This document shows positions 13,771-39,561 of a stretch of DNA of 64,000 bases, one piece after another. Below the pieces are notes generated by a model, which saw nothing but the letters and a program-made list of their open reading frames with translations, did not search any database and was not told where the DNA came from. Both the position numbers and the translations under genes were made by a program. Source of the stretch: Candidatus Zixiibacteriota bacterium (lineage in GTDB: Bacteria; Zixibacteria; MSB-5A5; GN15; FEB-12); the NCBI GenBank assembly GCA_020351995.1, contig CP070674.1, positions 1,413,307-1,477,306 on the forward strand. Direction: 5' to 3'. Position 1 is the first letter of the stretch; the number at the start of each line of letters is the position of its first letter.

Positions 13771-14844
13771 TCAGTTGTCAGCGATGATCTTTTTCAGCGC
13801 AACTACATCAAGCAAATCCACTCGCCCGCTACCATCAACATCGAACCTCAAATCATTCGGGGTGGCGTCACGCGTATGGAACAGGTAGTTCATCAATACG
13901 TCCACGTCCCCGTTATCAGTTATCCCGTCGGCGTTAAGGTCAGCCCCGGGATAGATATGCACCACCAGATCACCAATCATCTCGAATCTTGTCTTATCGA
14001 GGAACTTCCCTGAAACGGTGTACGCCAGCTCTATATCGCCGGTCAATGGTTCATAGGGCTTGAGAAGATTCTTCAAGGCAACGGTGGCCCGGATAGCCTT
14101 TCCTCCATAGACGGGATCCTGCTGAACCACCATTATGGTCCTCGGTTTTACGGCATCAACCTTCACGGACTTAAGGTCAACGTCGTATACGTCTTTCCCC
14201 CACTCACAGAAATTCCCGAAATAGATGTCCACGAATCCTCTTATCGGCGTTGTAGTGACGATATACCCCGGATCCGCATACGTGAATGGGTCGGGGCAAG
14301 CGTCGCCAATGGTATACTCATATGGGCCTCCCCAGTCAGGCACCACATTTACGTCCCCCCATATCCAGTGGTCTACCGGCGGATAGGAAGACGAATCCAC
14401 GATAATCGTCTTTTCGGCGTGTTCGCTATCGATCGGCCCTATTGTGATAGTATAGGCCGGTTCGTCAAAGAACGGCGGCATCCCGGTACCGATCACGTCC
14501 ATGGCGACAAAACCTACCGTGTCGGCTACGGAACCGTCGCAACTGAACGTCAATAAACCGATTGGACCGGTAATATAACGGGTCAGGCCATCGGGAACCG
14601 TGTCAGGAACGGTAGCCGTCCACTCCGCACCATCGGGCGAGTATACCCTGAACCCATTGTCAAGAATCCGATGATAGTCCTCATCGCCGGTAACGTGAAG
14701 AACGAACTCTATCGTTTCACCGAGCTTGAGAGTGCCGTCGGGGTTGGTAGCCTCCACGTCCTCAATCCAGATTGACTGACCCCATGCCGCACTGCCGAAA
14801 AACATAAACAGGACAAACACGAGAAACAATCCTGCCAGTCTCAT
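13771..14844 (-). CDS. Secreted protein, third member of the family with 15091..16770 and 17193..18344; C-terminal dockerin-like module (subtype 2)
   Basis: The ORF track starts at 14856. I prefer the ATG at 14844 because ATGGGAGGTATTATG places a GGAGG just upstream of it. Signal peptide MRLAGLFLVFVLFMFFGSAAWG. C-terminus at 13774..13950 reads DLNADGITDNGDVDVLMNYLF...FDVDGSGRVDLLDVVALKKII. Confidence 0.8.
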   Translation of the reverse strand: MRLAGLFLVFVLFMFFGSAAWGQSIWIEDVEATNPDGTLKLGETIEFVLHVTGDEDYHRILDNGFRVYSPDGAEWTATVPDTVPDGLTRYITGPIGLLTFSCDGSVADTVGFVAMDVIGTGMPPFFDEPAYTITIGPIDSEHAEKTIIVDSSSYPPVDHWIWGDVNVVPDWGGPYEYTIGDACPDPFTYADPGYIVTTTPIRGFVDIYFGNFCEWGKDVYDVDLKSVKVDAVKPRTIMVVQQDPVYGGKAIRATVALKNLLKPYEPLTGDIELAYTVSGKFLDKTRFEMIGDLVVHIYPGADLNADGITDNGDVDVLMNYLFHTRDATPNDLRFDVDGSGRVDLLDVVALKKIIADN

Positions 14845-14926
14845 AATACCTCCCATTGAATCAGGTTTAAAGGATTAGTGTTTTTCCCAGCAGCGTCAAT
14901 TGTGAGGGGGGCTACGCTGCGACCGC

Positions 14927-15090: not shown

Positions 15091-16770
15091 TTACTGCATG
15101 ACGATATCAATGATAGCGCGAACGTCGAGCAGGTCGATACGCCCACTGTCATCGACATCCATGCACTCATCCATTCTCTCGCCCCAGAGCGTAGCTCTCG
15201 GGCCACCATTGAACAACCAGTCTATCATGAAGACTGCGTCTTCGATGTTGGTCACGCCGTCAAAGGTGACGTCGCCAACATACATCGTCAGGTTGAACAG
15301 GAACGTGAGCGTCTGATCGCCACCGGACTTGTAATCATAGTAGACCGGGCAGGGTCTATCCTGATAACCATCCGACGGAACCGGGCGCATACCACCGGCA
15401 CCAAGGAAGCGCATAATGAAACAATCCGTCACCAGCGCTGAATCATCTCCAAAATACTCTATTTGAGGATGATCAGCGGAGTAGGGCGGGATGTTGAACA
15501 CGCGGATGGTTCCCCAGTCAATGTCTTCAAAATCATCGCACCAGATACGAACGTCAAGTCTTCTCTCATTCTCAAGCGCTTTGAGTTTGGTCGTCTCCGG
15601 GAAGCAAGTAGCATAAGGGTCACAGCCTGAGACCGTAATCGTAAAGTCCTCGTCATCGCTCAACCCGGCAGTGTTGGTAGCGGTAACCGTAACCGCATGA
15701 ACACCAACCGCGGCGGTCCAGTCGATCACGCCGGTCACGGGCTCAATAGTCATGCCGGCGGGGCCAGCGATTGAAAAGGTCGGGGGAATCGGATAGCCGA
15801 CTTCGTCGAGTTCGACGTTATAAGTGAACGCCGCACCCTCGGTGGCTGTTTGGTCATCAATCGCGGTTATAACCGGAGCCTTATTGACCACGATCACGAA
15901 CTCCTCGGTTGCTTCGCTCGGGCAGTCGTTGGAAACTCTGACGGTTACGGGGTGGGTGCCTTTAACGCAGGTCCAGTTGATTAGGCCGCTCACAGGGTCA
16001 ATAGTCATGCCGGCCGGAGCGCCGGGGTCCAGCGCGAAAGTAATAGGAGCGTCACCGGTCGCGTCAACATCGTAGGTAAAAGCGTCGCCATCCAGGTACG
16101 GGCCGGCTGGAGCGGTCGTAGCAATCGCCACATCTTCACAGCCACCTGGCTCGAACTGAAACACGTACGGGCCATCCCAGGCGATCGAATCGCCAACGGC
16201 GGTCCAGAGCCAGAAGTTGCCCGGCTCCCAGTACGTGGTATCCAAAACCAGTTGGGCCTCCGCGGCGCCCGCGACACTGGCAACGTTCAAGGAATAAAGC
16301 CAGTTATTGAATCCCGCCGGCAAACCATCCCCTTCGTTAGACACACCGGCGATACCCAGACCACCAAGACCCTTGGTAAGGGCGGCAGCTCCCCAGTACA
16401 TGTCGAACCAGGAATAGCATCCTTGGAACGGGTAGCAGCCCGCCATGAACGCGCACTCCATTTCGAATGGGTAAGTGCAGTTCTTTCCCAGGGTCACTCC
16501 GCCAATGGTAACACCATCCGGAGAATCGAAGTAGAAGCCGTTCGAAATCGCGGTGCGGACCTCATTCACGCCATCACGATTTAGATTTAAGAAGTAAATT
16601 GGAATTACCAGATCACCACCAGCCAGGGGAATCTTTCCCTCGGCGGTCAGCCCTGTCACCTCGGCGAGATCTACATAGACCCTGCAGGAGTCTACTTGGG
16701 CGGTTGCCAGGCTGAATGAGGCAATTACCAAAACAGCAAGCAATGCTGTCACTTTGATGGGTGCTCTCAT
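15091..16770 (-). CDS. Secreted protein: family N-domain + two He_PIG/cadherin-like Ig domains + pre-dockerin module + dockerin-like module (subtype 2)
   Basis: 559 aa with signal peptide MRAPIKVTALLAVLVIASFSLATA. Ig-type repeats include FTYDVDATGDAPITFALDPGAPAGMTIDPVSGLINWT and FTYNVELDEVGYPIPPTFSIAGPAGMTIEPVTGVIDWT. C-terminus at 15094..15279 reads GDVTFDGVTNIEDAVFMIDWLFNGG...DVDDSGRIDLLDVRAIIDIV. Confidence 0.85.
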   Translation of the reverse strand: MRAPIKVTALLAVLVIASFSLATAQVDSCRVYVDLAEVTGLTAEGKIPLAGGDLVIPIYFLNLNRDGVNEVRTAISNGFYFDSPDGVTIGGVTLGKNCTYPFEMECAFMAGCYPFQGCYSWFDMYWGAAALTKGLGGLGIAGVSNEGDGLPAGFNNWLYSLNVASVAGAAEAQLVLDTTYWEPGNFWLWTAVGDSIAWDGPYVFQFEPGGCEDVAIATTAPAGPYLDGDAFTYDVDATGDAPITFALDPGAPAGMTIDPVSGLINWTCVKGTHPVTVRVSNDCPSEATEEFVIVVNKAPVITAIDDQTATEGAAFTYNVELDEVGYPIPPTFSIAGPAGMTIEPVTGVIDWTAAVGVHAVTVTATNTAGLSDDEDFTITVSGCDPYATCFPETTKLKALENERRLDVRIWCDDFEDIDWGTIRVFNIPPYSADHPQIEYFGDDSALVTDCFIMRFLGAGGMRPVPSDGYQDRPCPVYYDYKSGGDQTLTFLFNLTMYVGDVTFDGVTNIEDAVFMIDWLFNGGPRATLWGERMDECMDVDDSGRIDLLDVRAIIDIVMQ

Positions 16771-17192: not shown

Positions 17193-18344
17193 TTAGTACA
17201 CATACTCGATCAGCGCCCGAATATCGAGCAGGTCAAAGCGACCACTCTGGTCGAAGTCCATGAATTCATCCATCCGATAACCGTCATAGGTGCAGGGCTC
17301 TCCGCCGTGGAAGAGGTAGTCAATCATGAAGACTACGTCATCGTTATTGACGGCGCCGTCAAAGTTCACATCGCCCTGGCTGATCATCTGAAGGAAGTCG
17401 CCATACAGAGTGTTTTCGCCACCAGCTAAATAGCTGTACGTGACCCAATACTCACCGGTATAGTCATCGGCAGGCAGCGGACGGAAGCCACCTGAGCCAA
17501 GGAAGCGCATCAGGTAGGCGTTGGTAACGACTGAGTCACCTTCGACCCAGGCCAGACCCTCATTAGTGTAGCACGGGATCTTGCCGAAGATCTTGACCGT
17601 GCCCAAGTCAACCGCATACGGATCATCTTCGCAATGAATCGAAACGTTCAGAACGCGGTCATTGTCATTGACACCGATCTCAAACGGGTTAGGCCAGCAA
17701 GTGGTAAACGGCCCTTCCGGACACGGGTCAAAACCACCCACGAATAGCGGGTCTGGAGGGGTCCAGCCCACATTAGCGCCAACACCGGTCCAGAGCCAGA
17801 AGTTGCCCGGTTCCCAGTAAGTAGTATCCATAACCAGCTGGGCCCCCAGCGGGCCGGAAACGCCCCAAGCCTTGATGGCGTAAATCCAGTCATCAAATCC
17901 CGGGGGAAGACCAGTACCCTTTTCCGCCAGGCCAGCAATACCCAGACCACCAAGACCCTTGGTAAGATCGGTGGCCGAGAAGTACATGTCAAACCAGGAA
18001 TAGCAATTGAACGGCTCGAATGGATAGCAGCCATTCATGATCGCGCACTCAAGGTCAACATTGTACACGCAGTTCTTGATAAGACTCAACGAATCAATGG
18101 TGACGCCGTCGGGCGATAAGAAGTAGTACCCGTTCGATACCGCGGTACGGAAATCCTCGGCGCCACTGGTGTTAACAAAGTGGATCGGAAATTCGAGGTC
18201 GGCGCCGACATCAGGGATATTGCCCTCTCCGTCAAGACCCGCAATCTCGCTATTAAGCACATAGACCTCTTGCCCCTGTGCGAAACCGAACGAGAAGAGT
18301 ACCATAACAGCAAGTAGTACTGTTGCTTTGAAGGGTGCTCTCAT
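17193..18344 (-). CDS. Secreted protein, short paralog of 15091..16770 (no Ig insert); dockerin-like module (subtype 2)
   Basis: 383 aa with signal peptide MRAPFKATVLLAVMVLFSFGFAQG. The N-domain is collinear with the paralog (LTKGLGGLGIAG, DTTYWEPGNFWLWT). C-terminus at 17196..17378 reads GDVNFDGAVNNDDVVFMIDYLFHGG...DFDQSGRFDLLDIRALIEYVY. Confidence 0.85.
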   Translation of the reverse strand: MRAPFKATVLLAVMVLFSFGFAQGQEVYVLNSEIAGLDGEGNIPDVGADLEFPIHFVNTSGAEDFRTAVSNGYYFLSPDGVTIDSLSLIKNCVYNVDLECAIMNGCYPFEPFNCYSWFDMYFSATDLTKGLGGLGIAGLAEKGTGLPPGFDDWIYAIKAWGVSGPLGAQLVMDTTYWEPGNFWLWTGVGANVGWTPPDPLFVGGFDPCPEGPFTTCWPNPFEIGVNDNDRVLNVSIHCEDDPYAVDLGTVKIFGKIPCYTNEGLAWVEGDSVVTNAYLMRFLGSGGFRPLPADDYTGEYWVTYSYLAGGENTLYGDFLQMISQGDVNFDGAVNNDDVVFMIDYLFHGGEPCTYDGYRMDEFMDFDQSGRFDLLDIRALIEYVY

Positions 18345-21674: not shown

Positions 21675-22397
21675 TCAGTGGAGAAAAGCGGCGACACGCC
21701 GGGCGATTTCGAAATTCTTGAAGGGCTTGGTTATATAACCGTCAGCGCCCGCCTCCAGAACATCGTGCTTATCGTAACCGTAAGTCTTGCCGGTGACTAT
21801 AAGCACCGGGATTTTGCGGGATTTCTCTTTTATGGCTTTGAGCAATTCCAGGCCGTTCATGCCAGGCATCTCGAGGTCCGAAATAACCAGCCCGATCTTC
21901 TTTGAATCAAACAGTTCCAGGGCCTGTTCGCCGCTCTCGGCTTCTTTCGTCTTATATCCCTCACGCTCGACGATCTTCTTAAGCAGGCCTCGCATGAGCG
22001 GATCGTCATCGACAATCAGAATCGTCTTCGTACTGTTTTCAATCAGGTGCTGAATTTTGGTGATAAGGATTCTGGCGTCGACCGGTTTGACAATAAAATC
22101 CTTGGCCCCCAACTCAATGCTTTTCATGACTGACTCGCGGTCGTGCTGAGCCGAAACCACCAGTACCGGGATCTTGTTGTACCGCTGGTTGGTCTGCAGG
22201 TACTCCAGAAACTGAAAGCCGTCCATACCGGGCATGTAGATGGTGCAGATTATGGCATCAAAAAAACGGTGCCCATTGAGCTCATTAATAGCCATTCGTC
22301 TGGAGTTGGCGATGACTACCTCGTATTCGGCCGCATCCAGGGTGGTTTTGATGGTTTTCAGCGTGACCGGATCTTCTTCGACCAGTAAGATTCTCAT
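21675..22397 (-). CDS. Stand-alone tandem receiver protein (REC-REC); first receiver lacks the phospho-acceptor Asp
   Basis: 240 aa. REC1 reads MRILLVEEDP...FFDAIICTIYMPGMDG, with Thr52 at the acceptor position. REC2 is canonical: ILIVDDDP...IGLVISDLEMPGMNG...ITKPF. No output domain. Confidence 0.85.
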   Translation of the reverse strand: MRILLVEEDPVTLKTIKTTLDAAEYEVVIANSRRMAINELNGHRFFDAIICTIYMPGMDGFQFLEYLQTNQRYNKIPVLVVSAQHDRESVMKSIELGAKDFIVKPVDARILITKIQHLIENSTKTILIVDDDPLMRGLLKKIVEREGYKTKEAESGEQALELFDSKKIGLVISDLEMPGMNGLELLKAIKEKSRKIPVLIVTGKTYGYDKHDVLEAGADGYITKPFKNFEIARRVAAFLH

Positions 22398-22547: not shown

Positions 22548-22568
22548 GGTGTTCAACACCTGAACACC
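22548..22568. promoter_or_regulatory. Inverted repeat GGTGTTCA-N5-TGAACACC (candidate operator), copy 1
   Basis: Perfect 8-bp arms in the 523-bp divergent intergenic region between the REC-REC gene and the pilin cluster. The same GTGTTCA-N5-TGAACACCGA occurs at 32389..32410. Confidence 0.5.
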
Positions 22569-22920: not shown

Positions 22921-23352
22921 ATGTACCACATTACAGGATACCATTGGAAAAACGACCGCGGCCTCAGTCTACTCGAAGTGCTGGTGGCAATGATTGTGCT
23001 CGCGGTCGGTATCTTAGGACTGGCACCTATGGTTGTGTTATCTATCGAAGGAAACAGTATATCGCGCGACTTCATCGTCGCCACCGAACTGGCTAAGGAG
23101 CAGCTTGAGCTATATGAAGCGCAGGATGTATTGATGAAGGCCAAGCCGGCACCCGCGCTTCCCACTGATAGTCTCAGTGATACCTTGATTTACTTACCCG
23201 ACGTTGACGGCTATTCGCGCACCGTTACCATTCAGGCCGCTGAAGGAATCAATCCGCCGAATCTTGTGAAAGTGACAATCGACATATCCTGGACAGACAA
23301 GTTAGGCAAGGTCCGCGCGATAAGACACTCAACACTGATGATGAATAACTGA
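22921..23352 (+). CDS. Type IV pilus minor pilin, PilV-like
   Basis: Prepilin N-terminus MYHITGYHWKNDRG/LSLLEVLVAMIVLAVGILGLAPM, the class III signal with Glu at +5. The ORF track starts at GTG 22876; I prefer ATG 22921. Confidence 0.75.
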   Translation: MYHITGYHWKNDRGLSLLEVLVAMIVLAVGILGLAPMVVLSIEGNSISRDFIVATELAKEQLELYEAQDVLMKAKPAPALPTDSLSDTLIYLPDVDGYSRTVTIQAAEGINPPNLVKVTIDISWTDKLGKVRAIRHSTLMMNN

Positions 23353-23368
23353 GGGGGGCAGGTTGAAA

Positions 23369-23986
23369 ATGAATACAAAAGAGAAAAAGCTCATTGGCGG
23401 ACACGCCGGTTTCACTCTTATAGAGCTTCTTATAGCGGCTCTCATTACGGCGATTCTGGCCGTTGCGGCGTTTCAGTTCTATGTCACCATGCAGCAGCAG
23501 GTCACTTCTCAAAAAGAGATTTCGGACATGCAGCAGATAAGCCGCTCGTGTCTCCAGGAAATCAGCAAAACTCTCCGCATGGCGGGCTACATGCTTCCCG
23601 AGGGCCACCCTGCCTTTGACACGATAAGCTCTGCCGAAATATGGGTATACATCGGGACCGGTGACCTGAGTGCCCTGGACCCGGTCGACACGACCAAATA
23701 CTACCTTCAGGAGTTTGATGCTGCTCAGTATGACAAGGTTCCGGGTCTCGCTGCTGGCATGAAACTATACAATCTGATTAAGGAGTCCGAAGAGCCCGGC
23801 TGGACACAGCCCGAAATCTTCGCCGACTACATAACGTCGCTATCCTTTCTGCCTATTGGTTCGTCAGAAATAGCAGTCACCATAGAGGTGCAAACCTCGA
23901 AAAAGGATGAAACCTTCAACGCTAACAACGGCTTTCGAACCTTTGTCAACACCGAGCGCGTTAACATGCGCAACCTGACGATATGA
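23369..23986 (+). CDS. Type IV pilus minor pilin, PilW-like
   Basis: MNTKEKKLIGGHAG/FTLIELLIAALITAILAVAAFQFY prepilin cleavage/methylation motif. The gene order V-W-X matches the classical fimU-pilVWXY1E order. Confidence 0.75.
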   Translation: MNTKEKKLIGGHAGFTLIELLIAALITAILAVAAFQFYVTMQQQVTSQKEISDMQQISRSCLQEISKTLRMAGYMLPEGHPAFDTISSAEIWVYIGTGDLSALDPVDTTKYYLQEFDAAQYDKVPGLAAGMKLYNLIKESEEPGWTQPEIFADYITSLSFLPIGSSEIAVTIEVQTSKKDETFNANNGFRTFVNTERVNMRNLTI

Positions 23987-25188
23987 GGAGGATCAAGTTG
24001 AAGAAGCTGATAAATGACAATAGTGGCGGGGCGCTTGTTATCGTCCTCGGTTTAATGCTTCTGCTGACAATAGCGGCCATACTGGCGGTGCATACCGCCC
24101 AGACCGATATAGACCTGTCTTTCAATCAGGTAGACTACGACCACGCCTTCTACATCGCCGACGCCGGCCTGAAAAAGGCCTTCAATGAACTGAACAAGGA
24201 CAACTTCTGGTCAGCCGGCTACCTTGAAATGGCCTTTGAGGACGGCGCGTATACCGTCATCACGGAACGGGATATCCCCGTCACCGATTCGGCCTTCGAC
24301 CCGATCACCGACAGGGTGACCCTGCGATCAACGGCCAGCTATCGGGAGTCTCAGGCTAACCTGAGAGCAGTGGTGGTACCGGAATTATTCTACCCCTTCA
24401 AATACGCCGTGTATGGAGAAGATGGGATTCTCATGGACAACAATTCGGAAACCGATTCCTACAACTCCGATGACGGGGCTTATGTTGATTCGCTCGCCGG
24501 GACAGAAGGCGATGTCGCATCTAATGGAACTATAGTCCTGGAGAACTCAGCGTTGGTAAACGGCGACGCCAGTAGTTCCCTGACCGGTGGTGTCAGCGTT
24601 TGTGCCACGTGTGGCGTCACGGAAGATGTTAGCGATGCAGCCGAGCCTTTCGAAATTCCGCCGATACCGGATTCGGTGTTCACTTACTATGAATCAAACA
24701 ATGACAACATTACCGGTGTTGATCCGGTAACCAGCATGATTTACCCCGGGCCGGATCTGATCCTGGCCATCGCCGACACGATAACCCTGACAACCGGCGT
24801 TTACTACTTCAACGACATAACGATGAACTCAAATTCGGTGATCATTCTGGATCCGACAGATCCAGACGTTGAGGTAAAGATATATATTCGCGGAACACTC
24901 ACCCTGGACAATAACACCACCATAAACCCGAATAATGACCCGACGGATTGCCTGATCTTCTCCGACGGCCAGATAGTTACAATCGGCAACGATACTGAGA
25001 TTTATGCCGCGTTCTACGGACCGGATGCCGATGTTGATCTGGGTAACAGCTGCGATTGGTACGGTTCGATAATAGCTGAATCGGTGAGCATGGTCAATAC
25101 GGGAAGCCTTCATTATGACGAAGCGCTGGCACCGATTCCGATCACTACCACCGGCAATATGCTCATGATATCCTGGATCGAGGATTAG
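23983..25188 (+). CDS. PilX-N-domain pilus assembly protein with C-terminal beta-helix-like domain
   Basis: 401 aa. N-terminus GGALVIVLGLMLLLTIAAILAVHTAQTDIDLS is PilX_N-like, with no Glu5. ATGA overlap with the PilW-like gene. C-terminal block FYGPDADVDLGNSCDWYGSIIAESVSMVNTGSLHYDEAL. Confidence 0.7.
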   Translation: MRRIKLKKLINDNSGGALVIVLGLMLLLTIAAILAVHTAQTDIDLSFNQVDYDHAFYIADAGLKKAFNELNKDNFWSAGYLEMAFEDGAYTVITERDIPVTDSAFDPITDRVTLRSTASYRESQANLRAVVVPELFYPFKYAVYGEDGILMDNNSETDSYNSDDGAYVDSLAGTEGDVASNGTIVLENSALVNGDASSSLTGGVSVCATCGVTEDVSDAAEPFEIPPIPDSVFTYYESNNDNITGVDPVTSMIYPGPDLILAIADTITLTTGVYYFNDITMNSNSVIILDPTDPDVEVKIYIRGTLTLDNNTTINPNNDPTDCLIFSDGQIVTIGNDTEIYAAFYGPDADVDLGNSCDWYGSIIAESVSMVNTGSLHYDEALAPIPITTTGNMLMISWIED

Positions 25189-25420
25189 CACTTTTGGCCC
25201 GAATCGCCTCACAGGCACATGGGAACTATAGCAGTATGTGAGGCACGACCGACGGCCCGGGCCCGATGAAAAGGTCGTCGATATTGAGAGTCAATTGGAC
25301 TCGAACGCTTTTAGACAGGTAACATGCGAGGGGCCTTTCTTCCTGGCGGGGGCTGACCAGCCTGCATGACATCAAGCGTGTTACAACAAGATAACGCTGT
25401 AATACGAGGAGTGTGTAGCC

Positions 25421-26587
25421 GTGGGACAACTACACATCAGTCAGCAAGGCGGGGCATTGCTCATCGCTCTGGGCATCATGTTACTGCTCACTATCGCAGC
25501 CCTCATAGCCGTGGATACCGCTCAAACCGATATGGAGCTATCCTTTAACCAGGTTCACTCCAGCCAGTCATTCTATGTCGCCCAGGCCGGGCTTATCCGG
25601 GCTTTCAACGAGATTAACAATGACAATGACTGGACGGCGGGCTTTCTGAACGAGCCGTATGAGGGGGGCTATTACACCGTCATCGTGGTTGACAGCACGG
25701 TCGAGGGTGCTCTGGTAGACACTGTCATTCTTCGCGCCACCGGTAAGATCGGCGACGCCAACACTAATCTCGAGGCACTGGTCGTTCCCGAATACTGGCG
25801 ACCATTTCAGTATGCTATGTTCGGAGACAGCGCCATAGTGATGGACAATAACACCTGTACCGACTCCTATAACTCGGACTCAGGCGACTATGCCTCCACC
25901 ATGGATCTAATCAATGGTGATGTCGCCTCTAACGGCGACCTGGAGTTCATCCATACCGCCGTTGTCGGCGGCGACGCCTCGAGCGCGACCGAAGGAGGCA
26001 TCTTTGTCTGTGCCACCTGCACCGTTTATGGAGATACCACCAGCAAGATCGATCCTCTCCCCGTTCCACCGGTACCGGATTCCGTTTACGATTGGGCACG
26101 GTCGGTCAACGCCGCTCCCGGCGGGCTTTCGGATCCATCCATGTACGATGGCGTCACTCATGCTTTAAACATGAATCTCAACTCAACGCTGACTCTATCC
26201 GGAGGCGTCTATTATTTCTCCGAAATCACAATAGAGAACAATTCCCGGCTGCAGGTTGCGCCTGGCGAAAGCGTCGAAATCTACGTGACCGGCGATATAT
26301 CTATCGGGCAAAACGCGTATGTCAATACTGACGGCGATCCGGCCGACATGGTGATTTTCTCCGATGGCGACTCCCTGCAGCTAGGCATGAGCACGGTGGT
26401 GCACGCCGCCTTTTATGGGCCTTCGGCAATTATGACAATGGAGAACAATTGTCAGTACTATGGATCAATCGTAGCCTACTCCGGCAGCGCCGTAAATGCC
26501 GCCTGTATACACTACGATCGGGCACTCCGGGAAGTGGAAGGCGGAAAAACCGGCGTGATGCATATGATCGCCTGGAAAGAATTATAA
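25421..26587 (+). CDS. Second PilX-N-domain protein (paralog of 23983..25188)
   Basis: 388 aa, GTG start. N-terminus GGALLIALGIMLLLTIAALIAVDTAQTDMELSFNQV. Collinear with its paralog, including the VCATC and FYGPSA...YGSIVA...IHYDRAL blocks. Confidence 0.7.
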   Translation: MGQLHISQQGGALLIALGIMLLLTIAALIAVDTAQTDMELSFNQVHSSQSFYVAQAGLIRAFNEINNDNDWTAGFLNEPYEGGYYTVIVVDSTVEGALVDTVILRATGKIGDANTNLEALVVPEYWRPFQYAMFGDSAIVMDNNTCTDSYNSDSGDYASTMDLINGDVASNGDLEFIHTAVVGGDASSATEGGIFVCATCTVYGDTTSKIDPLPVPPVPDSVYDWARSVNAAPGGLSDPSMYDGVTHALNMNLNSTLTLSGGVYYFSEITIENNSRLQVAPGESVEIYVTGDISIGQNAYVNTDGDPADMVIFSDGDSLQLGMSTVVHAAFYGPSAIMTMENNCQYYGSIVAYSGSAVNAACIHYDRALREVEGGKTGVMHMIAWKEL

Positions 26588-26596
26588 CAAAACAGG

Positions 26597-26630
26597 AGGC
26601 CGAGGCGACAATCCACTGCCGTCTCGGCCT
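26597..26630. terminator. Hairpin between convergent genes (PilX-like 2 and the giant gene)
   Basis: AGGCCGAG...CTCGGCCT 8-bp stem. On the minus strand it is followed by CCTGTTTTG; there is no T-run on the plus strand. Confidence 0.45.
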
Positions 26631-26659: not shown

Positions 26660-29600
26660 CTATGGCACGTTGATTGTGTAACTCTGGTAGTCGGTGCCAT
26701 AGTCATTGGTCGCCTCAATCACGACATCGTAATCGCCCGAAGAACCGGGCGTAAACTCCACTTCGCCGGTCACAGGGTCTATGGTCATCCCGCTCGGGTA
26801 GGTTGTCAATGCGTAAGTTGGGGCGGGATACCCGCTGGCGTCAGCGTCGTACGTGTACAGTACACCGACGGACCCGGTCGTTATCGGCGTGGACGTAAAC
26901 GACGGCGCAATTCCAACTACCGTAATAGCAAATGACTGAGTGTCGCTGCCGTAAGAGTTGATAGCAACAACCGTGACGTCATAATCACCAACATCAGCCG
27001 GGGTCCACTCGATCACGCCGGTATTGGCATCGACTGTCATACCCGACGGCTTTGTCGTCAGCGCGTAAGTCGGGGCCGGATAGCCATCAGCTTCAACATC
27101 ATAGCTGTAAAGTTGACCGTAGGTACCCGTTGTGACCGCCGTGGAAGTGATTGTCGGGACCTCGACGATGGTCAACACGAAGTCATCAGTATCGGTGCCG
27201 TAAGCGTTGGTAGCTTCAACGACTACATCGAAATCACCCACTCCCGTCGGGGTCCAGGCAATTTCCCCGGTGATGGGATCAATCGTCATTCCCGTCGGGT
27301 AAGTCGTCAGCGAATAGGTTGGAGCAGGGTAACCCGTGGCATCGGCATCTTCAGTGAAACCTACGCTAAGAAGCTGTACCTGATCAGGGATATCAGCCAG
27401 GAAAGGCGCCACGCCCGATACACTGATAGTGAACGGCTGCGTATCGGTGCCATAAATATTGGTAGCTTCAACAACCACATTATAATCGCCTATATCCGAC
27501 GGTGTCCACTCTACCACACCCGTATTGGCGTCAATTGTCATACCTGTTGGGTATGTTGTCAGTGAGTAAGTTGCCGCCGGGTAGCCTCCGGCCTCGGCGT
27601 CATAGCTATACAATTGGCCATAAGTACCTGTCGTCACCGGCGTTGACGTAAACGCCGGGGCAACACCTGTCACCGAGATCGTGAAGCTCTGGGGTGTCGT
27701 TCCAGCGGAGTTGGTGGCTTCAATGACAACGTCGACATTCCCGGTATCAGACGGCGTCCAGCGAACCAAACCCGTACCACTATTGATAGTCATTCCCGCG
27801 GGGTACGTAGTAAGAGAATATGTCGGCGTCGGCTCACCGGTAGCGTCGGCGTTGTACTCATAGAGTACATTATAGGTACCGGTGGTTATCGGAGTCGAGG
27901 TGAAGGTCGGCGGTATTCCTACAACGGTAAGGATGAAACTCTGGGTGTCGGCGCCATTAACATTAGCCGCTTCAACCTCCACATCGTAATCCCCGATACT
28001 GCCCGGGGTCCAAGTAATTACACCAGTGGTGGCGTTAATCTTCATGGCCGAAGGAGACGTTATCAAATCGAACGTAGGTGCCGGATTTCCCGTAGCCTCG
28101 ACATCATAAGTGTATGGTTGGTCAATCGTGGCAGTCGTAACCGGTGTTGATGTTATCACGGCTCCAGCCGGGGCCGCCGATACACTGATCGTGAAATTCT
28201 GGTATGCGGTTCCATAAGTGTTAGTGGCCTCGATTTCGACATCGTAGTCACCCTCCGAATCCGGGGTCCATTCCACAAGACCGGTTCCGCTATTAATCGT
28301 CATTCCGGTCGGATAGGTGGTTAGCGAATACGTCGGGGTCGGATAACCATCGGCATCCGCGTCATAGGAATATAGTACACCGGTTACTCCGGTAGTGACC
28401 GGCGTCGAGGTAAAGCTCGGCGCGACACCGCTCACGGATATGGTAAAGCTCTGATAATCCGTGCCGTAAATATTGGTAGCTTCCACCACAACATCGGCAT
28501 CGCCGGTGGCGTCTGGTGTCCATTCAATGACACCGGTGTTGCCATCGATGGTCATCCCGGTCGGGTACGTTGTGAGAGCGAATGTCGCCGCAGGGTATCC
28601 GCTGGCATTGGCATCATAGCTGTAGAGCTGACCGTAAGTCGCCGTGGTAACAGGAGTTGACGTAAACGCTGGAGCCACACCGGTGACACCGATAGTATAG
28701 CTCTGCTGTGTACTTCCGGCGGCATTGATCGCTTCGATAACGACATCGACATCACCCGTATCTGCGGGCGTCCAGCGTACAACACCGGTTCCACTATTGA
28801 TTGTCATACCGGCTGGCCCATCGAGCAGGGCGTAGGTAGGCGTGGGATCGCCCGTGGCGTCGGCATCATACTCGTACTGTACACCGTAGGTCGCCGTAAG
28901 AATCGGCGTGGAGGTAAAGCTTGGAGCAACTCCCGACACCGTCACCACGAAACTCTGGGTGTCGGCGCCATTGACGTTAAGAGCCTCCACTTCAACATCG
29001 AAGTCACCGACAGACCCCGGTGTCCAGCTGATAAGCCCGGTCGTTGAGTTGATGTTCATGCCCGACGGCGAGGTAATGAGGTCAAACGTCGGGGCCGGGT
29101 AGCCGGTAGCCTCAACGTCGTAAGCATACGCCTGCCCCACCGTCACGCTCGTGACAGGTGTAGAGGTAATCACCGGTGGTTCCGGGGTTCCGGAAACCGA
29201 TATGGTGTAATTCTGAATATCAAGACCGTAGGCGTTACTGGCTTCGATAGTAACATCAACATCACCCTCTTCGGTCGGTGTCCACTGCACCACACCGGTC
29301 GCCGGATCAATCGTCATACCGGTCGGGAATTCTGTAAGGGCGAACGTCGCCGCCGGGTAACCGTCGGTCTCGGCATCATAACTATATAGCACTCCAACCA
29401 CACCGGTCGTCGGAGGACTTGATATAAAAGTCGGGGCAATGCCGGCCACCGAAATAGTGAAATTCTGAATGTCCGTTCCATAAGCGTTTGCGGCCTCGAC
29501 GATGACATTATGATCGCCATCATCATCCGGTGTCCACTGAATAAGGCCGCTCGCCGGGTCAATCGTCATTCCGGTGGGGAAGGTTGTCAGCGAGAACGTA

Positions 29601-32182
29601 GCCGCCGGGTAACCATCGGCGTCGGCATCATAACTATATAATTGTTGATATGTTCCGGTGGTGATCGGGGTCGAGGTAAAGGTCGGCGCGATTCCGGCTA
29701 CCGATATGGTGAAGCTCTGCGGATCGGTACCCGAACTGTTACTGGCTTCAACCACAACATCGTAATCCCCTACGTCACCAGGCGTCCACTGAATCAGCCC
29801 CGTAGCCGGGTCGATGGTCATCCCGGTAGGGTAAGTCGTGAGCGCGAAGGTTGGGGCCGGATTGCCGCTTGCTTCAACATCGTATGTGTATAATTGATTG
29901 TACGTCCCGGTGAGAATAGGAGTCGAGGTGATCACTGGCGCCTCGGCAGGCAGGACCGAGATTGTGAAATTCTGCGGCGTCGTGCCGGCCGAGTTAGTGG
30001 CCTCCAGAACAACGTCGTAGTCACCGTCCGAAGGCGGAGTCCACTGGATAAGACCGGTAATAGGATCGACAGTCATTCCGGCCGGAAAGGTAACCAGAGA
30101 ATAACTGGGCACCGGATACCCGTCAGCATCGGCGTCATAAACATATAGTTCACCGGAAACACCTGTCAGGGGTGGGCTTGTGGTAAACGAAGGGGCGATA
30201 CCGCTGACCGAGATGGTATAGGGCTGATAATCATCGCCCCACGTATTCGAAGCGTTAATGGTAACATCGAAATCGCCAACGTCATCCGGCGTCCATTCTA
30301 CGAGGCCGGTAACCGGATCGATAGTCATTCCCGGCGGTGCCAAAGTAAGTGAGAAATCCGGATCTGGGTCGCCATCGGCGTTGGCGTCATAGCTATACAG
30401 CACACCGTAAGTAGCCGTCGTTACTGGAGTGGACGTGAACATGGGCGCGATTCCGCCGAGGGGACAGTCGATTGGAGCGGGGCCGCCGCGGTGCAGGTAG
30501 TCGATCAAATAGTCAACATCGAGAATATCTACCTGGTCATTGTCATCGGCATCGGCCTCCTGCTCGCAAATCGGTGCCGAGCCGTCTCGAAAGAGATAGT
30601 CGACTATAAAGTCCAGGTCAAGAAGATCGAATTGACCGTTATGGTCGGCATCGCCACGCAATTCACAGCACTCCAGCCATTCAAGCTCGGTGTTGACGTA
30701 TAAATACATTCGCTCACCCACAATTGAGTCAACCCGCACATAGATGCCCGAATAACCATAGTAACTGTCACTGCTCGGATAAGTCTGCGGACCAAACTCG
30801 CTCTGTCCGGGGACATCGGACGAAAAAAGCGCCCCTTTTCTGGTCTCCCAGGGATACCACCATTGGGCGCTGTCGGTCAAACGGCCTTCAGGGTTATAAG
30901 TATAATCCTTGAGCGGGTTGTAACCGGCATCCTCGACGCACACGGCATAGTGGGGATCTAAGGGCGTTCCCTGGTTGAGTGATATAATCTCTTGGGGGTC
31001 GACCAGCGAATCATCAATATGTGTTATCAATAGTCCGCGGTCCAGCACGTCATAACCGAACGTGAGATTGGGATAGAACCATGAGCAAAAATCGGAGTCG
31101 AATTTATCGAACTTACCTGCTGACTGCGGATTTCGGTACTCGAGTAAGAAGTACTCCAGGTCGCTGTCATTGATGGGTATTCTATATAATGAAGAATCTG
31201 CGGTTGTCTCAACATTGTATATGACGAGATCATGATACTCGCCCTCAAGAATGATCGGCTCGATATACCCCAGCCGCACCTTGTTCCAGCCGCAGTAATG
31301 ATTGGCGCTTACCCCGCCCAGCGACAAATAACCGTAGCCATAGTAACCCATTGGATCCCAATCAACAAGCGGATGGTCGTTCTGGTCGTTCGCAATATTA
31401 TAGGTCGATGTCACCAGTTTGCCGTCGTAGTCGTACAGGTCTGCCAGGCCGATGTTATGGCCAACTTCGTGAACAAACACGCGGATACCGCTCCGTACAG
31501 TCTCTCCGCTGAACTGCACCGGGTATATGGGGTCCCGCAGTGGTTTGAGCTCCGGACAGGTGTTCCAGGCGTCCACCTGGACCCGGTCATAGCGGCCCCA
31601 GCCCTGATCACTGGCAGCGGCATAGGACCAGATATCGAGAGGATCCTGGGAATCTTCTTCTCCGACACCGGAACGGATGAAACAGATCGCGTCGGCCTTC
31701 CTATCCTCGTTGCCATCATATAGAGAATAGTCAATGTACGGATCTAATATCTCAAACAGCGAACTGAATGGAAAATACTTTCCAAATGTGGGGCCGGCGT
31801 TGTACCAATCAAATACATCGCCGGTAAGCTTCACCTGGCCATACGAAACCTCATGGATGTAATCGGCCAGAGAACCCTCGGGAAGAACGTCGCGGGAGAA
31901 GAGCAAAGTATCGAAAGCCTGCCATGGTAACGTCCCGGGCCGATCTCCCCATTCCACCAGAATAGCCAGCAGCCTGAGACTGTCTCCCTTAAAGCTTGCC
32001 GCTGAGAGGAGGTCAGCTTGTGTCCCGGCATATCCGTGCCAGGGAAGTCTGCCCCATTGAACCTGGACCTGTGATTCGGGCATATCGAAGACGAGAAAAT
32101 AATCGGGGTCGGAAGCCAGCGCGGGCACGCCAAGGAGTAAGACAAGGCTGCCAATTAGAAGTTTTCTGGGCATTTTCTTCAC
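26660..32182 (-). CDS. Giant secreted protein: M6/InhA-like metalloprotease domain + internal dockerin-like module + 15 tandem He_PIG/cadherin-like Ig repeats
   Basis: 1840 aa with signal peptide MKKMPRKLLIGSLVLLLGVPALA. Zinc site FVHEVGHNIGLADLYDYDG, with HEVGH at 31457..31471. Dockerin-like CCELRGDADHNGQFDLLDLDFIVDYLFRDGSAPICEQEADADDNDQVDILDVDYLIDYLHRGGPAPIDC at 30455..30673. Repeats span 26663..30454. Confidence 0.9.
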   Translation of the reverse strand: MKKMPRKLLIGSLVLLLGVPALASDPDYFLVFDMPESQVQVQWGRLPWHGYAGTQADLLSAASFKGDSLRLLAILVEWGDRPGTLPWQAFDTLLFSRDVLPEGSLADYIHEVSYGQVKLTGDVFDWYNAGPTFGKYFPFSSLFEILDPYIDYSLYDGNEDRKADAICFIRSGVGEEDSQDPLDIWSYAAASDQGWGRYDRVQVDAWNTCPELKPLRDPIYPVQFSGETVRSGIRVFVHEVGHNIGLADLYDYDGKLVTSTYNIANDQNDHPLVDWDPMGYYGYGYLSLGGVSANHYCGWNKVRLGYIEPIILEGEYHDLVIYNVETTADSSLYRIPINDSDLEYFLLEYRNPQSAGKFDKFDSDFCSWFYPNLTFGYDVLDRGLLITHIDDSLVDPQEIISLNQGTPLDPHYAVCVEDAGYNPLKDYTYNPEGRLTDSAQWWYPWETRKGALFSSDVPGQSEFGPQTYPSSDSYYGYSGIYVRVDSIVGERMYLYVNTELEWLECCELRGDADHNGQFDLLDLDFIVDYLFRDGSAPICEQEADADDNDQVDILDVDYLIDYLHRGGPAPIDCPLGGIAPMFTSTPVTTATYGVLYSYDANADGDPDPDFSLTLAPPGMTIDPVTGLVEWTPDDVGDFDVTINASNTWGDDYQPYTISVSGIAPSFTTSPPLTGVSGELYVYDADADGYPVPSYSLVTFPAGMTVDPITGLIQWTPPSDGDYDVVLEATNSAGTTPQNFTISVLPAEAPVITSTPILTGTYNQLYTYDVEASGNPAPTFALTTYPTGMTIDPATGLIQWTPGDVGDYDVVVEASNSSGTDPQSFTISVAGIAPTFTSTPITTGTYQQLYSYDADADGYPAATFSLTTFPTGMTIDPASGLIQWTPDDDGDHNVIVEAANAYGTDIQNFTISVAGIAPTFISSPPTTGVVGVLYSYDAETDGYPAATFALTEFPTGMTIDPATGVVQWTPTEEGDVDVTIEASNAYGLDIQNYTISVSGTPEPPVITSTPVTSVTVGQAYAYDVEATGYPAPTFDLITSPSGMNINSTTGLISWTPGSVGDFDVEVEALNVNGADTQSFVVTVSGVAPSFTSTPILTATYGVQYEYDADATGDPTPTYALLDGPAGMTINSGTGVVRWTPADTGDVDVVIEAINAAGSTQQSYTIGVTGVAPAFTSTPVTTATYGQLYSYDANASGYPAATFALTTYPTGMTIDGNTGVIEWTPDATGDADVVVEATNIYGTDYQSFTISVSGVAPSFTSTPVTTGVTGVLYSYDADADGYPTPTYSLTTYPTGMTINSGTGLVEWTPDSEGDYDVEIEATNTYGTAYQNFTISVSAAPAGAVITSTPVTTATIDQPYTYDVEATGNPAPTFDLITSPSAMKINATTGVITWTPGSIGDYDVEVEAANVNGADTQSFILTVVGIPPTFTSTPITTGTYNVLYEYNADATGEPTPTYSLTTYPAGMTINSGTGLVRWTPSDTGNVDVVIEATNSAGTTPQSFTISVTGVAPAFTSTPVTTGTYGQLYSYDAEAGGYPAATYSLTTYPTGMTIDANTGVVEWTPSDIGDYNVVVEATNIYGTDTQPFTISVSGVAPFLADIPDQVQLLSVGFTEDADATGYPAPTYSLTTYPTGMTIDPITGEIAWTPTGVGDFDVVVEATNAYGTDTDDFVLTIVEVPTITSTAVTTGTYGQLYSYDVEADGYPAPTYALTTKPSGMTVDANTGVIEWTPADVGDYDVTVVAINSYGSDTQSFAITVVGIAPSFTSTPITTGSVGVLYTYDADASGYPAPTYALTTYPSGMTIDPVTGEVEFTPGSSGDYDVVIEATNDYGTDYQSYTINVP
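26663..30454 (-). repeat. 15 tandem coding repeats of 246-258 nt (82-86 aa Ig-like units)
   Basis: Repeat boundaries counted by hand. Consensus: G(V/I)AP.FTSTP.TT.TYG.LYSYDADA.GYPAPTY.LTTYP.GMTID..TG...WTP...GDYDVV.EATN.YGTD.Q.FTISV. Confidence 0.9.
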
Positions 32183-32318
32183 TGTTGTTGTCCTGTTCTT
32201 AACTGGTGTGTACGTAAGTGTCAGAGTTCTTAAGTAATCGGAGTAAATCTCTCACCCGGACGGGGGTCCTGGGGCGAATCGGGTAAAGTGCTACTCGACA
32301 CGGTGATTAACTGGCCTA

Positions 32319-32347
32319 AATATAGGCTACAAAGTCTTTTTTGTCAA
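32319..32347 (-). promoter_or_regulatory. Sigma70-type promoter TTGACA-N17-TATATT for the giant gene
   Basis: The minus strand reads gtgTTGACAaaaaagactttgtagccTATATTtagg. This implies a leader of about 130 nt. Confidence 0.65.
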
Positions 32348-32353
32348 CACTTT

Positions 32354-32407
32354 GTCTTCCTTCAGAAGACATTATTTCCGATCGGAAAGTGTTCATATAA
32401 TGAACAC
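32354..32407. promoter_or_regulatory. Three back-to-back inverted repeats immediately upstream of the giant-gene -35
   Basis: GTCTTC-N5-GAAGAC at 32354..32370. The perfect 14-bp palindrome TTTCCGATCGGAAA at 32375..32388. GTGTTCA-N5-TGAACAC at 32389..32407. Confidence 0.5.
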
Positions 32408-32674: not shown

Positions 32675-32762
32675 TGGTGCCGAAGGGGGGACTCGAACCC
32701 CCACTCCCGTAAAGAGAACTGCGCCCTGAACGCAGCGCGTCTACCAGTTTCACCACTTCGGC
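32675..32762 (-). tRNA. tRNA-Leu (anticodon CAG), CCA encoded
   Basis: Folded by hand. Acceptor GCCGAAG/CTTCGGC, anticodon stem CTGCG/CGCAG with loop TTCAGGG, long variable arm, T arm GGGGG-TTCGAGT-CCCCC, discriminator A and CCA. Confidence 0.9.
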
Positions 32763-34040: not shown

Positions 34041-35207
34041 GTGGGGTCGATTGCTATGATTGAAGTTGCACTTCTTATCGTTATTCTGATGTTCAAATTC
34101 GGCCGCGACCTTTCTGGCCTCTCGTATGATTGGTTGGACCGGGCCCTGATCGGCCTCGAATCTCGCATGCGCATGGTTGGTTGGACGCTGCTTCTCTCGC
34201 TGCTGCTTATTGCCCTGGCTACGGTGTATGCTCGTATCGCCGTCGAATGTACCTATCTCGGTAGGCACTATGCCGCGTTGGCAGAGAACCCCTTTGCTCT
34301 TGGCAGCTCAAACCCGGTCTCATATCGCATATTGACTCCCCTTATCAGCTACTTGATCGGCCTTCGTGGCCAGGGAATCATCATCACCAACCTGCTAATA
34401 TCGGTGGTAATGGTAGCATGCGTTTACATGTATTTCCGCAAAACTGCCCCCCGACCTGGAGACGCTTTTCTGATGTCTACTGTGATCACCTTCTCTCTGG
34501 TGGTGCTGACCTCCATACACTGCGGAGGATACTGCGACATCATGTCCTATCTCCTGATTTTTCTCATGTGGTGGTTTCGTAAGCACCGGACGTTGTTCTA
34601 CCTGATGTTCCTGGCCGGACTCCTTAATCGAGAATCCGTTCTGTTTCTGCTGCCGTGGTTCATTGTTATAAGCCTCGATTCTGACAGACCATGGTATCTT
34701 AGGATTGTGGAGATGATATTTGGCTTCGGCATTACTATCCTCGTTTACTACTTATTCCGTCAGTGGGTAACCTCGGGTGCCGAGATAAAGTACTCTCTGA
34801 GCTATTATCTCGAGCCGTTCGTCACGAACCCACTGCAGAGACTCAAACGGACCGTTTATTATCATTCCCTGGGTCTCTTCTCAGTCTACAAAGTTCTCTG
34901 GGTCTTCCCCTGTGTTGCAGCGCTATCCTGGTGGCGCAACCGGAAGTATGCCTCGCTCGCAAACGTTCTCATCCTATTGTTGTGCGCATGGGCACAGCTT
35001 TTTCTCGCCATTGACACATCCCGTATGTTCACATTAGGTTTCATGGTTATGATTGTTGCCGTGGATGACTTGCTCAAGACCGACTTCATGCACTTTCGAC
35101 GGTGGGCATTCTGGGCCGTGCTGTTTAACCTGATGATTCCTCAAGTCTATACTGCGGGTAAAGTGGTAGAAGTGTGGCAGACTCTCACCACGCACATTTC
35201 GTTATGA
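34041..35207 (+). CDS. Polytopic integral membrane protein, unknown function
   Basis: 388 aa with about 9-10 hydrophobic segments and no soluble domain. GTG start at 34041; an ATG lies at 34056. Confidence 0.6.
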   Translation: MGSIAMIEVALLIVILMFKFGRDLSGLSYDWLDRALIGLESRMRMVGWTLLLSLLLIALATVYARIAVECTYLGRHYAALAENPFALGSSNPVSYRILTPLISYLIGLRGQGIIITNLLISVVMVACVYMYFRKTAPRPGDAFLMSTVITFSLVVLTSIHCGGYCDIMSYLLIFLMWWFRKHRTLFYLMFLAGLLNRESVLFLLPWFIVISLDSDRPWYLRIVEMIFGFGITILVYYLFRQWVTSGAEIKYSLSYYLEPFVTNPLQRLKRTVYYHSLGLFSVYKVLWVFPCVAALSWWRNRKYASLANVLILLLCAWAQLFLAIDTSRMFTLGFMVMIVAVDDLLKTDFMHFRRWAFWAVLFNLMIPQVYTAGKVVEVWQTLTTHISL

Positions 35208-35234
35208 CTGCTCTAAGAATCCAGTTGATCCTGA

Positions 35235-37541: not shown

Positions 37542-37761
37542 CCCGCATTATCGAATGCCGCATTTCATCACCCTGATATATAAAATTCGCCCTTCTTGGT
37601 TAAAACACTTTTGGACTGTGGCTGGAGGAGACAGGGGTCGTATTCGCGCCACACCAATTTCACAAAAGTAAACTCCCTTCACTTAATGCTGTCAAGAAAA
37701 TACTTACCTCAATCTGTACTGCAGCCTCATGCCGCCCGGAACTGGCCACTGAGTTTAACGC

Positions 37762-37790
37762 TTGACAGAATCACCGGCGATCAGTAATCT
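37762..37790 (+). promoter_or_regulatory. Promoter candidate TTGACA-N17-TAATCT for the 37961.. operon
   Basis: Hexamers and spacer read by eye. Lies about 170 nt upstream of the small ORF. Confidence 0.35.
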
Positions 37791-37960
37791 ACTGTGCAAT
37801 GGTTGCTACGCCGGTTAACTTTAATCAGCGACACCCTCGGCGCCGGTCTGCAATCTGGAATCGATTGACATATAATGCCAGCGATGGCGGCTTACTATTG
37901 ACGCCTTGGTATTCGCCCCGCACAAGAACAGTTGCCGAAAGGGAGGAGAGTAATAGATTG

Positions 37961-39560: not shown

Positions 39561-39561
39561 C

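Follow-up and report, generated by a model that had tools for sequence, protein, structure and literature searches.

What do four pilin-like genes do when none of the genes needed to build a pilus lies beside them, and what fills the place of PilY1 where that protein would be expected? The question is raised by positions 22921-26587 of a stretch of 64,000 nucleotides (the window) from a metagenome-assembled genome (MAG) of Candidatus Zixiibacteriota, lying on a contig of 3,608,982 bp with the locus tags JSV52_*. A preliminary description, made from the letters of the DNA, had read these genes as an orphan minor-pilin cluster in the order PilV-PilW-PilX-PilX', with a duplicated PilX-like gene in the position expected of PilY1 and with products that may present or dock a large adhesin, in view of the giant protease/Ig protein encoded convergently to them. 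Our analysis confirms the observation of the cassette, lends partial support to that interpretation and supports the docking idea only in part. In our judgement the cassette probably encodes a priming or tip trimer of a type IV filament, resembling GspI-GspJ-GspK from type II secretion systems (T2SS), in which two alternative beta-solenoid caps replace PilY1 and for which the machinery acts in trans.

The open reading frame (ORF) listing of the window gives four ORFs in this region, all on the plus strand and in one direction, named here g1, g2, X1 (g3) and X2 (g4) (Table 1). Some 10 nt separate g1 from g2, X1 begins inside the end of g2, with 4 nt in common, and a gap of 232 nt lies between X1 and X2. 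The start of g1 is placed at a conserved MYHI at 22921, the longest ORF opening at a GTG at 22876, and NCBI places the start of g2 at 23369; in the same annotation X1 is a 'pilus assembly PilX N-terminal domain-containing protein' and X2 is hypothetical. Both g1 and g2 score above the cut-off of the Pfam N_methyl model (30.1 and 27.7 bits; cut-off 21.2) and their cleavage sites, RG/LSLLE and AG/FTLIE, where '/' is the point of cleavage, follow the prepilin pattern of G, then L or F, then xxxE. X1 and X2 carry GG/A followed by a hydrophobic helix, like PilX_N, and lack the glutamate at mature position 5 (Glu5), which is also missing from the close X homologs in our alignment. X1 scores 29.0 bits with PilX_N (cut-off 25.5), 66.0 with DUF7305 (PF23981; cut-off 27) and 32 with pAdhesive_15 (PF20597), and X2 reaches 61.8 bits with DUF7305, again above 27, and matches the N-terminus of the GspK model at E 1e-5; both proteins fall within the large, uncharacterised DUF7305 family. 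Aligned along the whole of their length, the two share 46% identity (E 9e-109), so that the duplication of the PilX-like gene is borne out from end to end. The three conserved blocks that had been picked out in the two proteins hold in 20-35 homologs, with the reservation that the cysteines of the 'VCATC' block are replaced in many of them.

The names PilV and PilW need more care. The match of g1 to the PilV model TIGR02523 (E 2.5e-8) covers the N-terminal part only and reaches 34.5 bits, below the cut-off of 52.2, and g2 has no match to PilW (PF16074) at E<=0.1, a domain that is present on remote sequence homologs of g2. Scoring as T2SS components, another outcome that the preliminary description had put forward, fared no better: GspK (NF037980) is matched at 18.5-25.2 bits against a cut-off of 130, GspJ (TIGR01711) at 24.7 against 64.85 and GspI (TIGR01707) at 19.6 against 44.35, in each case along the N-terminal helix alone. 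Since none of these curated thresholds is reached, the class names GspI/PilV-class and GspJ/PilW-class are safer than family names, and it is at the level of class that the earlier naming of g1 and g2 stands.

An AlphaFold2 model of X1, built from a 35-sequence alignment (pLDDT 89.5, pTM 0.78), predicts a helix at residues 13-72, four strands at 80-136, a beta-solenoid at 143-379 and a last strand at 388-400. The C-terminal domain described previously as a beta-helix of about 300 aa is thus present, in the model, as a solenoid of ~240 aa (residues ~143-379), which is followed by the conserved last strand of the pilin, TG.M.MI.W.E. In a Foldseek search of the PDB the top match of X1 is ComZ of Thermus thermophilus (6QVI; E 7.8e-8, Foldseek probability 1.0), followed by DUF3494 ice-binding proteins (E 4e-5 to 1e-3, target-normalised TM 0.56-0.68). 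The model of g2 likewise has a predicted pilin fold (pLDDT 90.9), and its sole meaningful fold match in the PDB is Thermus Tt1219 (5G24_B; E 3.5e-3, Foldseek probability 1.0, TM 0.40/0.42). Family profiles of g1 and g2 run against PDB sequences gave matches to the N-terminal helix of major pilins, or nothing.

The Thermus genes Tt1218 (PilA2), Tt1219 (PilA3) and comZ (6QVI, 5G24) share with the cassette the order small pilin, GspJ-like pilin, large cap. Tt1218 is GspI-like, and Tt1219, which is GspJ/XcpW-like, is encoded between Tt1218 and TTHA1220, that is, ComZ (PMC5131608). ComZ is a GspK-like pilin with an ice-binding-protein-like solenoid between its penultimate and last strands, a bulk that is incompatible with the filament shaft and that led to a proposed site at the tip (PMC6561018). 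As modelled, X1 would resemble it in joining a pilin domain to an ice-binding-like triangular beta-solenoid ahead of the last strand. The two systems differ in that the solenoid of ComZ is ~380 aa long against ~240 aa in X1, that the cap is duplicated in the cassette, that the cassette locus has no PilA1/GspH-like gene or major pilin and that the cassette solenoids are strongly acidic.

GspI-J-K and PilV-W-X operate as helix-bundled trimers that start filament assembly. We infer that g1, g2 and one Glu5-less cap, either X1 or X2, would form such a trimer, which would start the assembly of a filament and remain at its distal end. Each cap would carry an ice-binding-protein-like beta-solenoid inserted ahead of the last pilin strand and, because a solenoid of this bulk is too large for the filament shaft, it would sit on the axis as plug and adhesin in the place of PilY1. 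Most likely X1 and X2 are alternative caps that confer two tip specificities; X2 would be under its own conserved leader, and the assembly machinery, major pilin and prepilin peptidase would be supplied from elsewhere in the genome. For Thermus, Tt1218, Tt1219 and ComZ have been proposed to act as just such a starting or tip trimer.

A PilX that substitutes for PilY1 has also been proposed in cyanobacteria, all of whose PilX proteins are reported to carry the solenoid, as a plug (bioRxiv 10.64898/2026.02.12.705559). As published, the cyanobacterial proteins (PilX-Com and PilX-EPS/HpsA) are, like X1 and X2, PilX-class caps that lack Glu5, and their ice-binding-like solenoid is set between the last strand and the one before it; the genomes that bear them have no PilY1, and two PilX paralogs lead to two kinds of filament. 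To read the solenoid PilX of the window as a substitute for PilY1 agrees with what has been proposed in print for the PilX of cyanobacteria and for ComZ. The comparison, which we draw from the published description, has its differences: each cyanobacterial PilX subfamily has a PilV subfamily of its own, whereas one V and one W precede both X genes here, and phylum and genomic context (protease genes in the present case) are not the same. The FimU-PilV-PilW-PilX-PilY1 priming complex of Pseudomonas and Myxococcus shares with the cassette the V-W-X order and the priming or tip role, and its PilX_N domain matches X1; the cassette differs in having no FimU, PilE or PilY1 and in an X protein with a solenoid, three times the size of proteobacterial PilX.

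The nature of the solenoid surface bears directly on what such a tip would bind. The solenoid of X1 contains 43 Asp/Glu and, as its basic residues, 2 Lys and 1 Arg (net charge -40), that of X2 has seven basic residues (net -25), and the net charge is negative in 36/36 of the homologs examined. ComZ, by comparison, binds DNA via lysines (PMC6561018). Acidity as extreme as this argues against a DNA receptor of the ComZ type, and DNA binding by the solenoid appears disfavoured on grounds of composition; what the acidity points to is adhesion to a surface that is cationic, mineral or proteinaceous, or one bridged by Ca2+. It is thus very improbable that the cassette forms the tip of a competence pilus, as PilA2-PilA3-ComZ does in Thermus, with the solenoid cap receiving extracellular DNA, even though the solved structures nearest to X1 and g2 are ComZ and Tt1219, the gene order mirrors that of the Thermus locus and one cyanobacterial PilX subfamily serves competence pili (bioRxiv 10.64898/2026.02.12.705559). 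Besides the charge, comEA, comEC and dprA were not detected among the window ORFs scanned, and the sequence similarity to ComZ is, as given below, insignificant.

The genes that would build the filament were sought in and around the window. Pfam scans of the window ORFs of at least 150 aa judged to be real genes, short ORFs that overlap longer ones on the opposite strand being excluded, detected none of PilA/B/C/D/M-Q/T, PilY1 and the Gsp machinery across the 64 kb, and a scan of all window ORFs of at least 50 aa for the prepilin motif returned just g1, g2 and one weak match that is not a pilin. The Walker-A motif of PilB/PilT/GspE is absent from the window and from 32 related loci (516 kb in all); no major pilin, FimU/GspH-class gene, PilY1 or PilB/GspE-type ATPase lies within 10 kb of any cassette locus inspected; and no PilY1-type beta-propeller occurs among the scanned window ORFs or the Pfam-annotated genes of the related loci. 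No record was found of the protein at the right edge of the window; the DNA to the left of the window holds RuvX, YceG and a GAF protein only, and the neighbours of the cassette in one related locus, L014, are ABC transporter, hydrogenase and Nuo-like genes, with no pilus machinery. The earlier statement that the window has neither PilY1 nor pilus machinery holds in these scans. Minor-pilin operons are usually unlinked to the machinery, fimU-pilVWXY1E of P. aeruginosa lying apart from pilABCD and pilMNOPQ. The word 'orphan' is right in that no machinery is local, and requires the qualification that this position is normal for the cassette family, which is always dispersed away from the machinery.

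Several results weigh against the trimer that we favour and must be set beside it. The PilX_N check, which X1 satisfies, gives only 14.2 bits for X2, under the cut-off of 25.5. The likeness of X1 to ComZ is at the level of fold only (TM 0.33), and in sequence it is insignificant, a profile of 35 homologs searched against PDB sequences reaching E 0.15 over the N-terminal helix. Evidence from fold covers X1 and g2 of the four proteins. Finally, within 10 kb of the cassettes there is no gene for an assembly ATPase, for a platform protein or secretin, or for a prepilin peptidase or major pilin, and the cassette has no FimU/GspH-class adaptor.

The cassette is far from unique. Its close homologs (38-79% identity) come nearly all from Zixibacteria, and a profile search of 1.84 billion representatives returned 10,191 clusters at 50% identity with E<=1e-3, and 314 with E<=1e-30, the best matches being mostly 380-430 aa long and aligned over their full length. 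DUF7305 also sits on the N-termini of TadG-type pseudopilins, a fusion from which we take the domain to serve type IV filaments generally as a tip module. A literature search found nothing useful on the pili of Zixibacteria and no paper on DUF7305. We inspected 30 related loci (L001 and onwards), with a contig profile scan built on 20 sequences. More than 20 loci keep the V-W-X order and the tight coupling of g2 to X1, X being present in one to three tandem copies, and orthologs of g1 are the first gene in 20 cassette loci. Cassettes of the form V-W-X(1-3) are met repeatedly in Zixibacteria, in Calditrichota and in Ignavibacteriales, with several such loci per genome. The arrangement is V-W-X-X' in the window and in L001, L005, L006, L014, L016, L022, L023 and L026; V-W-X-X-X in L017 and L018; W-X-X-X in L013, where no V ORF was detected and the first two X copies are frameshifted; and W-X in L015 (Calditrichota) and L020 (Ignavibacteriales). 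X is solitary in L002, L004, L012, L019 and L003. In a neighbour-joining tree the orthologs of X1 and those of X2 form separate clades, so the duplication is an old one, maintained by at least four lineages, and X has expanded independently in others. That the ORFs are intact at 35-79% identity implies selection.

Solitary X genes raise the alternative that X1 and X2 are stand-alone adhesins of the cell surface, fixed in the membrane through an uncleaved N-terminal helix and outside any filament, beside pilin-like genes that are unrelated or vestigial. L002, L004, L012 and L019, with X but neither V nor W, would suit this, as would the annotated pAdhesive_15/ice-binding-like adhesive domain and the want of machinery nearby. 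We nonetheless give it little credence: the V-W-X order and the coupling through the 4-nt overlap of g2 and X1 are kept in more than 20 loci, the invariant strand after the solenoid fits a complete pilin fold and in a diderm cell a solenoid anchored in the inner membrane would stay within the periplasm.

Two sets of X genes call for separate comment. A solitary X in a 'Planctomycetota' assembly (bin1449, CP070790, L003/L010, 10001-11182) is 48% identical to X1 and falls inside the Zixibacteria clade of solitary X, while all 120 of the 120 listed matches to the bin1449 PilM that have a source name are from Planctomycetes/Phycisphaerae, which points to horizontal transfer or to a chimeric assembly. 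This PilM (L003) was also tried as a route to the pilus machinery of the window genome and was dropped, none of the matches listed being on its contig. In the MFD09964 MAG (L013 7531-10059, L014 8216-9852) the X and W genes are broken into several frames; these splits may be indel errors of long reads or true pseudogenisation of extra caps.

Just ahead of X2 lies a conserved leader (Table 1) with a 9-bp helix (25319-25327 with 25376-25384) around a hairpin, GGGGCU-N4-AGCCUG (25349-25364), and then a Shine-Dalgarno sequence, GAGGAG. The leader is kept in seven loci. By RNAalifold and pair counts, 85.7% of its cells are paired there, a share that falls to 31-51% once the partners are slid, and six pairs are altered on both sides among the seven sequences. 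A covariance model finds it solely before X2-type genes and recovers an additional, untrained copy in L013 (8855-8952; 47.8 bits). There is no match to it in Rfam, and the fold of the single sequence is unremarkable (z -0.7). The leader may be a regulatory RNA or an operator or promoter block, seven sequences being compatible with action as RNA or as DNA. A riboswitch for c-di-GMP or another known ligand, in the gap or in the upstream regions, was considered and rejected, Rfam at permissive E giving tRNA-Leu only. So was GGGGGCTGA as a motif common to the X1-X2 gap and the region upstream of the giant gene: its frequency in the window is that of chance, and the upstream copy is not exactly kept in L005, where CGGGGCTAG stands.

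The preliminary description had further linked the cassette to the giant convergent protein and to a dyad upstream of both. In the giant protein He_PIG repeats are found at E 1.9e-126, the M6 domain scores 86.7 bits with TIGR03296, under the cut-off of 110.8, and the tail of the type IX secretion system (T9SS) is lacking. M6-dockerin genes lie convergent to the cassette in five loci, namely the window, L001 (four copies), L005, L006 and L013 (two copies), among which the opposite flank of the cassette varies; M6 is absent at the more distant cassette loci, so that the linkage is limited to one clade. Secreted peptidases of other families often adjoin those distant loci (S8, bearing a T9SS tail, as well as tricorn S41, C25 and M1), and within one or two genes of X in L001, L002, L004, L012, L013, L017, L022 and L023 we find, with striking frequency, M6, C25, C1, tricorn S41, S8, M1, M19 and C69 peptidases. 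These genomes are rich in peptidases, and adjacency is taken here as suggestive. Three more secreted proteins of the window (13771-14856, 15091-16770 and 17193-18344, minus strand) have C-terminal dockerin-like modules or He_PIG repeats; dockerin proteins are common in the genome, and any conclusion from adjacency alone is weakened accordingly.

The dyad, GTGTTCA-N5-TGAACAC, is perfect and has just two sites in the window at up to two mismatches, against 0.15 expected (Table 1). L005, the nearest relative, keeps both (8550-8568 and 18147-18165, with 0 and 1 mismatch), the mismatch being at the site before the giant gene, where the distance to the gene start is unchanged. Both stand as conserved islands amid diverged intergenic DNA, which we read as the likely phylogenetic footprint of a real operator, and the dyad is probably the operator of a regulator. 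It is absent from L001, L006, L007 and L013. Site 1 is 152 nt from the REC-REC gene (Pfam Response_reg, E 9.8e-59), which occupies the matching position in L005, and 354 nt from g1; its target is therefore ambiguous, and the REC-REC gene is a possible one. About 50 nt downstream of site 2 a promoter-like TTGACA-N17-TATATT can be read by eye (32347-32319, minus strand); this site and the ~135-nt leader after it (32183-32347, minus strand) are near-identical in L005, far above the surrounding DNA, which suggests a functional 5' untranslated region. Two promoter candidates were set aside, a sigma-54 promoter before g1 or X2, whose GG-GC spacing is wrong by eye, and TTGACA-N17-TTTATA at 22753, which is not kept in L005. 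The link to the giant protein thus survives as M6-dockerin synteny in the five loci and a dyad footprinted in L005, both missing from the distant cassettes, and the shared dyad survives as a rare pair of sites, one of which is nearer to the REC-REC gene than to g1.

An alternative function for the cassette would be as the tip of a short, periplasmic T2SS-like pseudopilus that pushes specific Sec-exported cargo, the neighbouring M6-dockerin protease or adhesin, through a secretin, with the X paralogs selecting the cargo. T2SS GspI-GspJ-GspK and the cassette indeed have three classes of minor subunit in common, of which the largest is Glu5-less and caps the fibre, and match weakly in their N-terminal models. 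An I-J-K-class set with no major pilin fits such a system, as do the best, if weak, NCBIfam matches of X1 and X2, to the N-terminus of GspK; the convergent M6-dockerin genes of five loci; the S8, tricorn S41, C25 and M1 secreted peptidases that adjoin X genes; the shared, footprinted dyad; a giant protein with a signal peptide and no T9SS tail; and the solitary X of L003, 1.7 kb from a T2SSK/PilM/secretin cluster. We still regard secretion as unlikely. The Gsp equivalog scores, confined to the N-terminal helix, are far under their cut-offs and no Gsp genes are near the cassette; the insert of GspK is alpha-helical, at another point of the fold, and is no solenoid (PMC6561018); and the solenoid relatives of known function, ComZ and cyanobacterial PilX, belong to type IVa pili. 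Several of the adjoining peptidases bear T9SS tails, and for these no T2SS is required, while the M6 linkage of a single clade and the wealth of peptidases in these genomes make adjacency weak evidence.

The trimer at the tip of a type IV filament may be elaborated into a more specific scheme, which we hold to be doubtful, of swappable tips. One V-W pair would prime filaments capped by X1 or X2 (by up to three caps elsewhere), X2 would be switched through its leader, the unit would be co-regulated with the M6/Ig protein via GTGTTCA-N5-TGAACAC, and the very acidic tip would bind the cell to particles of a proteinaceous or mineral kind, or would aid in exporting the protease or positioning it on them. 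If true, this would couple a type IV filament physically to extracellular proteolysis in an uncultured, sediment-dwelling phylum.

Table 1. Positions of the cassette and of neighbouring features (window coordinates unless a related locus is named; '/' is the predicted cleavage site)
Feature	Position	Strand	Description
REC-REC response regulator	21675..22397	-	divergent; two receiver domains, no output domain
Dyad GTGTTCA-N5-TGAACAC, site 1	22549..22567		divergent intergenic region between REC-REC gene and g1
g1	22921..23352	+	143 aa; PilV/GspI-class small minor pilin; leader ...NDRG/LSLLEV, Glu5 kept
g2	23363..23986	+	207 aa; PilW/GspJ-class minor pilin; leader ...HAG/FTLIEL, Glu5 kept
g3 (X1)	23983..25188	+	401 aa; PilX/GspK-class cap pilin with inserted beta-solenoid (predicted); GG/ALVIV, no Glu5
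Leader	25313..25411	+	final ~100 nt of the X1-X2 gap, directly 5' of X2
Leader copies	L001 11286-11384; L005 11313-11412; L006 9842-9942; L007 11236-11334; L013 8855-8952 and 10235-10330; L021 513-611		
g4 (X2)	25421..26587	+	388 aa; second cap pilin, paralog of X1; GG/ALLIA, no Glu5
G+C-rich 11-bp hairpin	26597..26630		separates the stop codons at which X2 and the giant gene converge; seen directly in the sequence
Giant secreted protein	26660..32182	-	1840 aa, convergent; signal peptide, M6 (InhA-like) metalloprotease domain, dockerin-like module, ~15 He_PIG Ig repeats
Dyad GTGTTCA-N5-TGAACAC, site 2	32389..32407		207-225 nt upstream of the giant gene start

The hairpin between X2 and the giant gene is probably a two-way terminator; it has no T-run and was not flagged by the terminator scan. 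The remaining substantial ORFs of the window encode housekeeping proteins, dockerin/He_PIG surface proteins, HtrA-like proteases, sigma factors and glycan-modifying enzymes, and PADLOC gave no matches for anti-phage defence. Tandem paralogs of ~790 aa with DUF7948 and SBBP beta-propeller repeats lie at 4719-7103 and 7274-9616 (plus strand), and a tRNA-Leu(CAG) gene (32675-32762, minus strand) lies between the region upstream of the giant gene and a C5-epimerase gene. A block of ~8 kb (34041-41526) has no counterpart in L005, which is syntenic apart from this and in which the C5-epimerase gene directly precedes a sigma-70 gene; the block encodes a 388-aa protein, an AftA_N-type GT-C glycosyltransferase, a methyltransferase-like protein and a sulfatase/LTA-synthase-like protein, and may be an inserted glycan-modification island.

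The design of a solenoid cap is already known from ComZ and cyanobacterial PilX, and the cassette, which is real, is in this respect fairly ordinary; current models of type IV filaments are not overturned by it. What is specific to the lineage is the tandem arrangement of the caps, the M6 synteny with a shared operator and the leader between the caps. The cassette extends the design in which a solenoid PilX takes the place of PilY1 to the Zixibacteria and to neighbouring lineages of the FCB group, and it provides a working annotation for DUF7305 as a cap domain of type IV filaments. Tandem cap paralogs that have been kept for so long suggest that the swapping of tips is a general route by which filament binding is diversified. 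The M6 neighbourhood and the shared operator, for their part, provide a lead, open to testing, on the way in which these uncultured degraders of protein fasten to a substrate.

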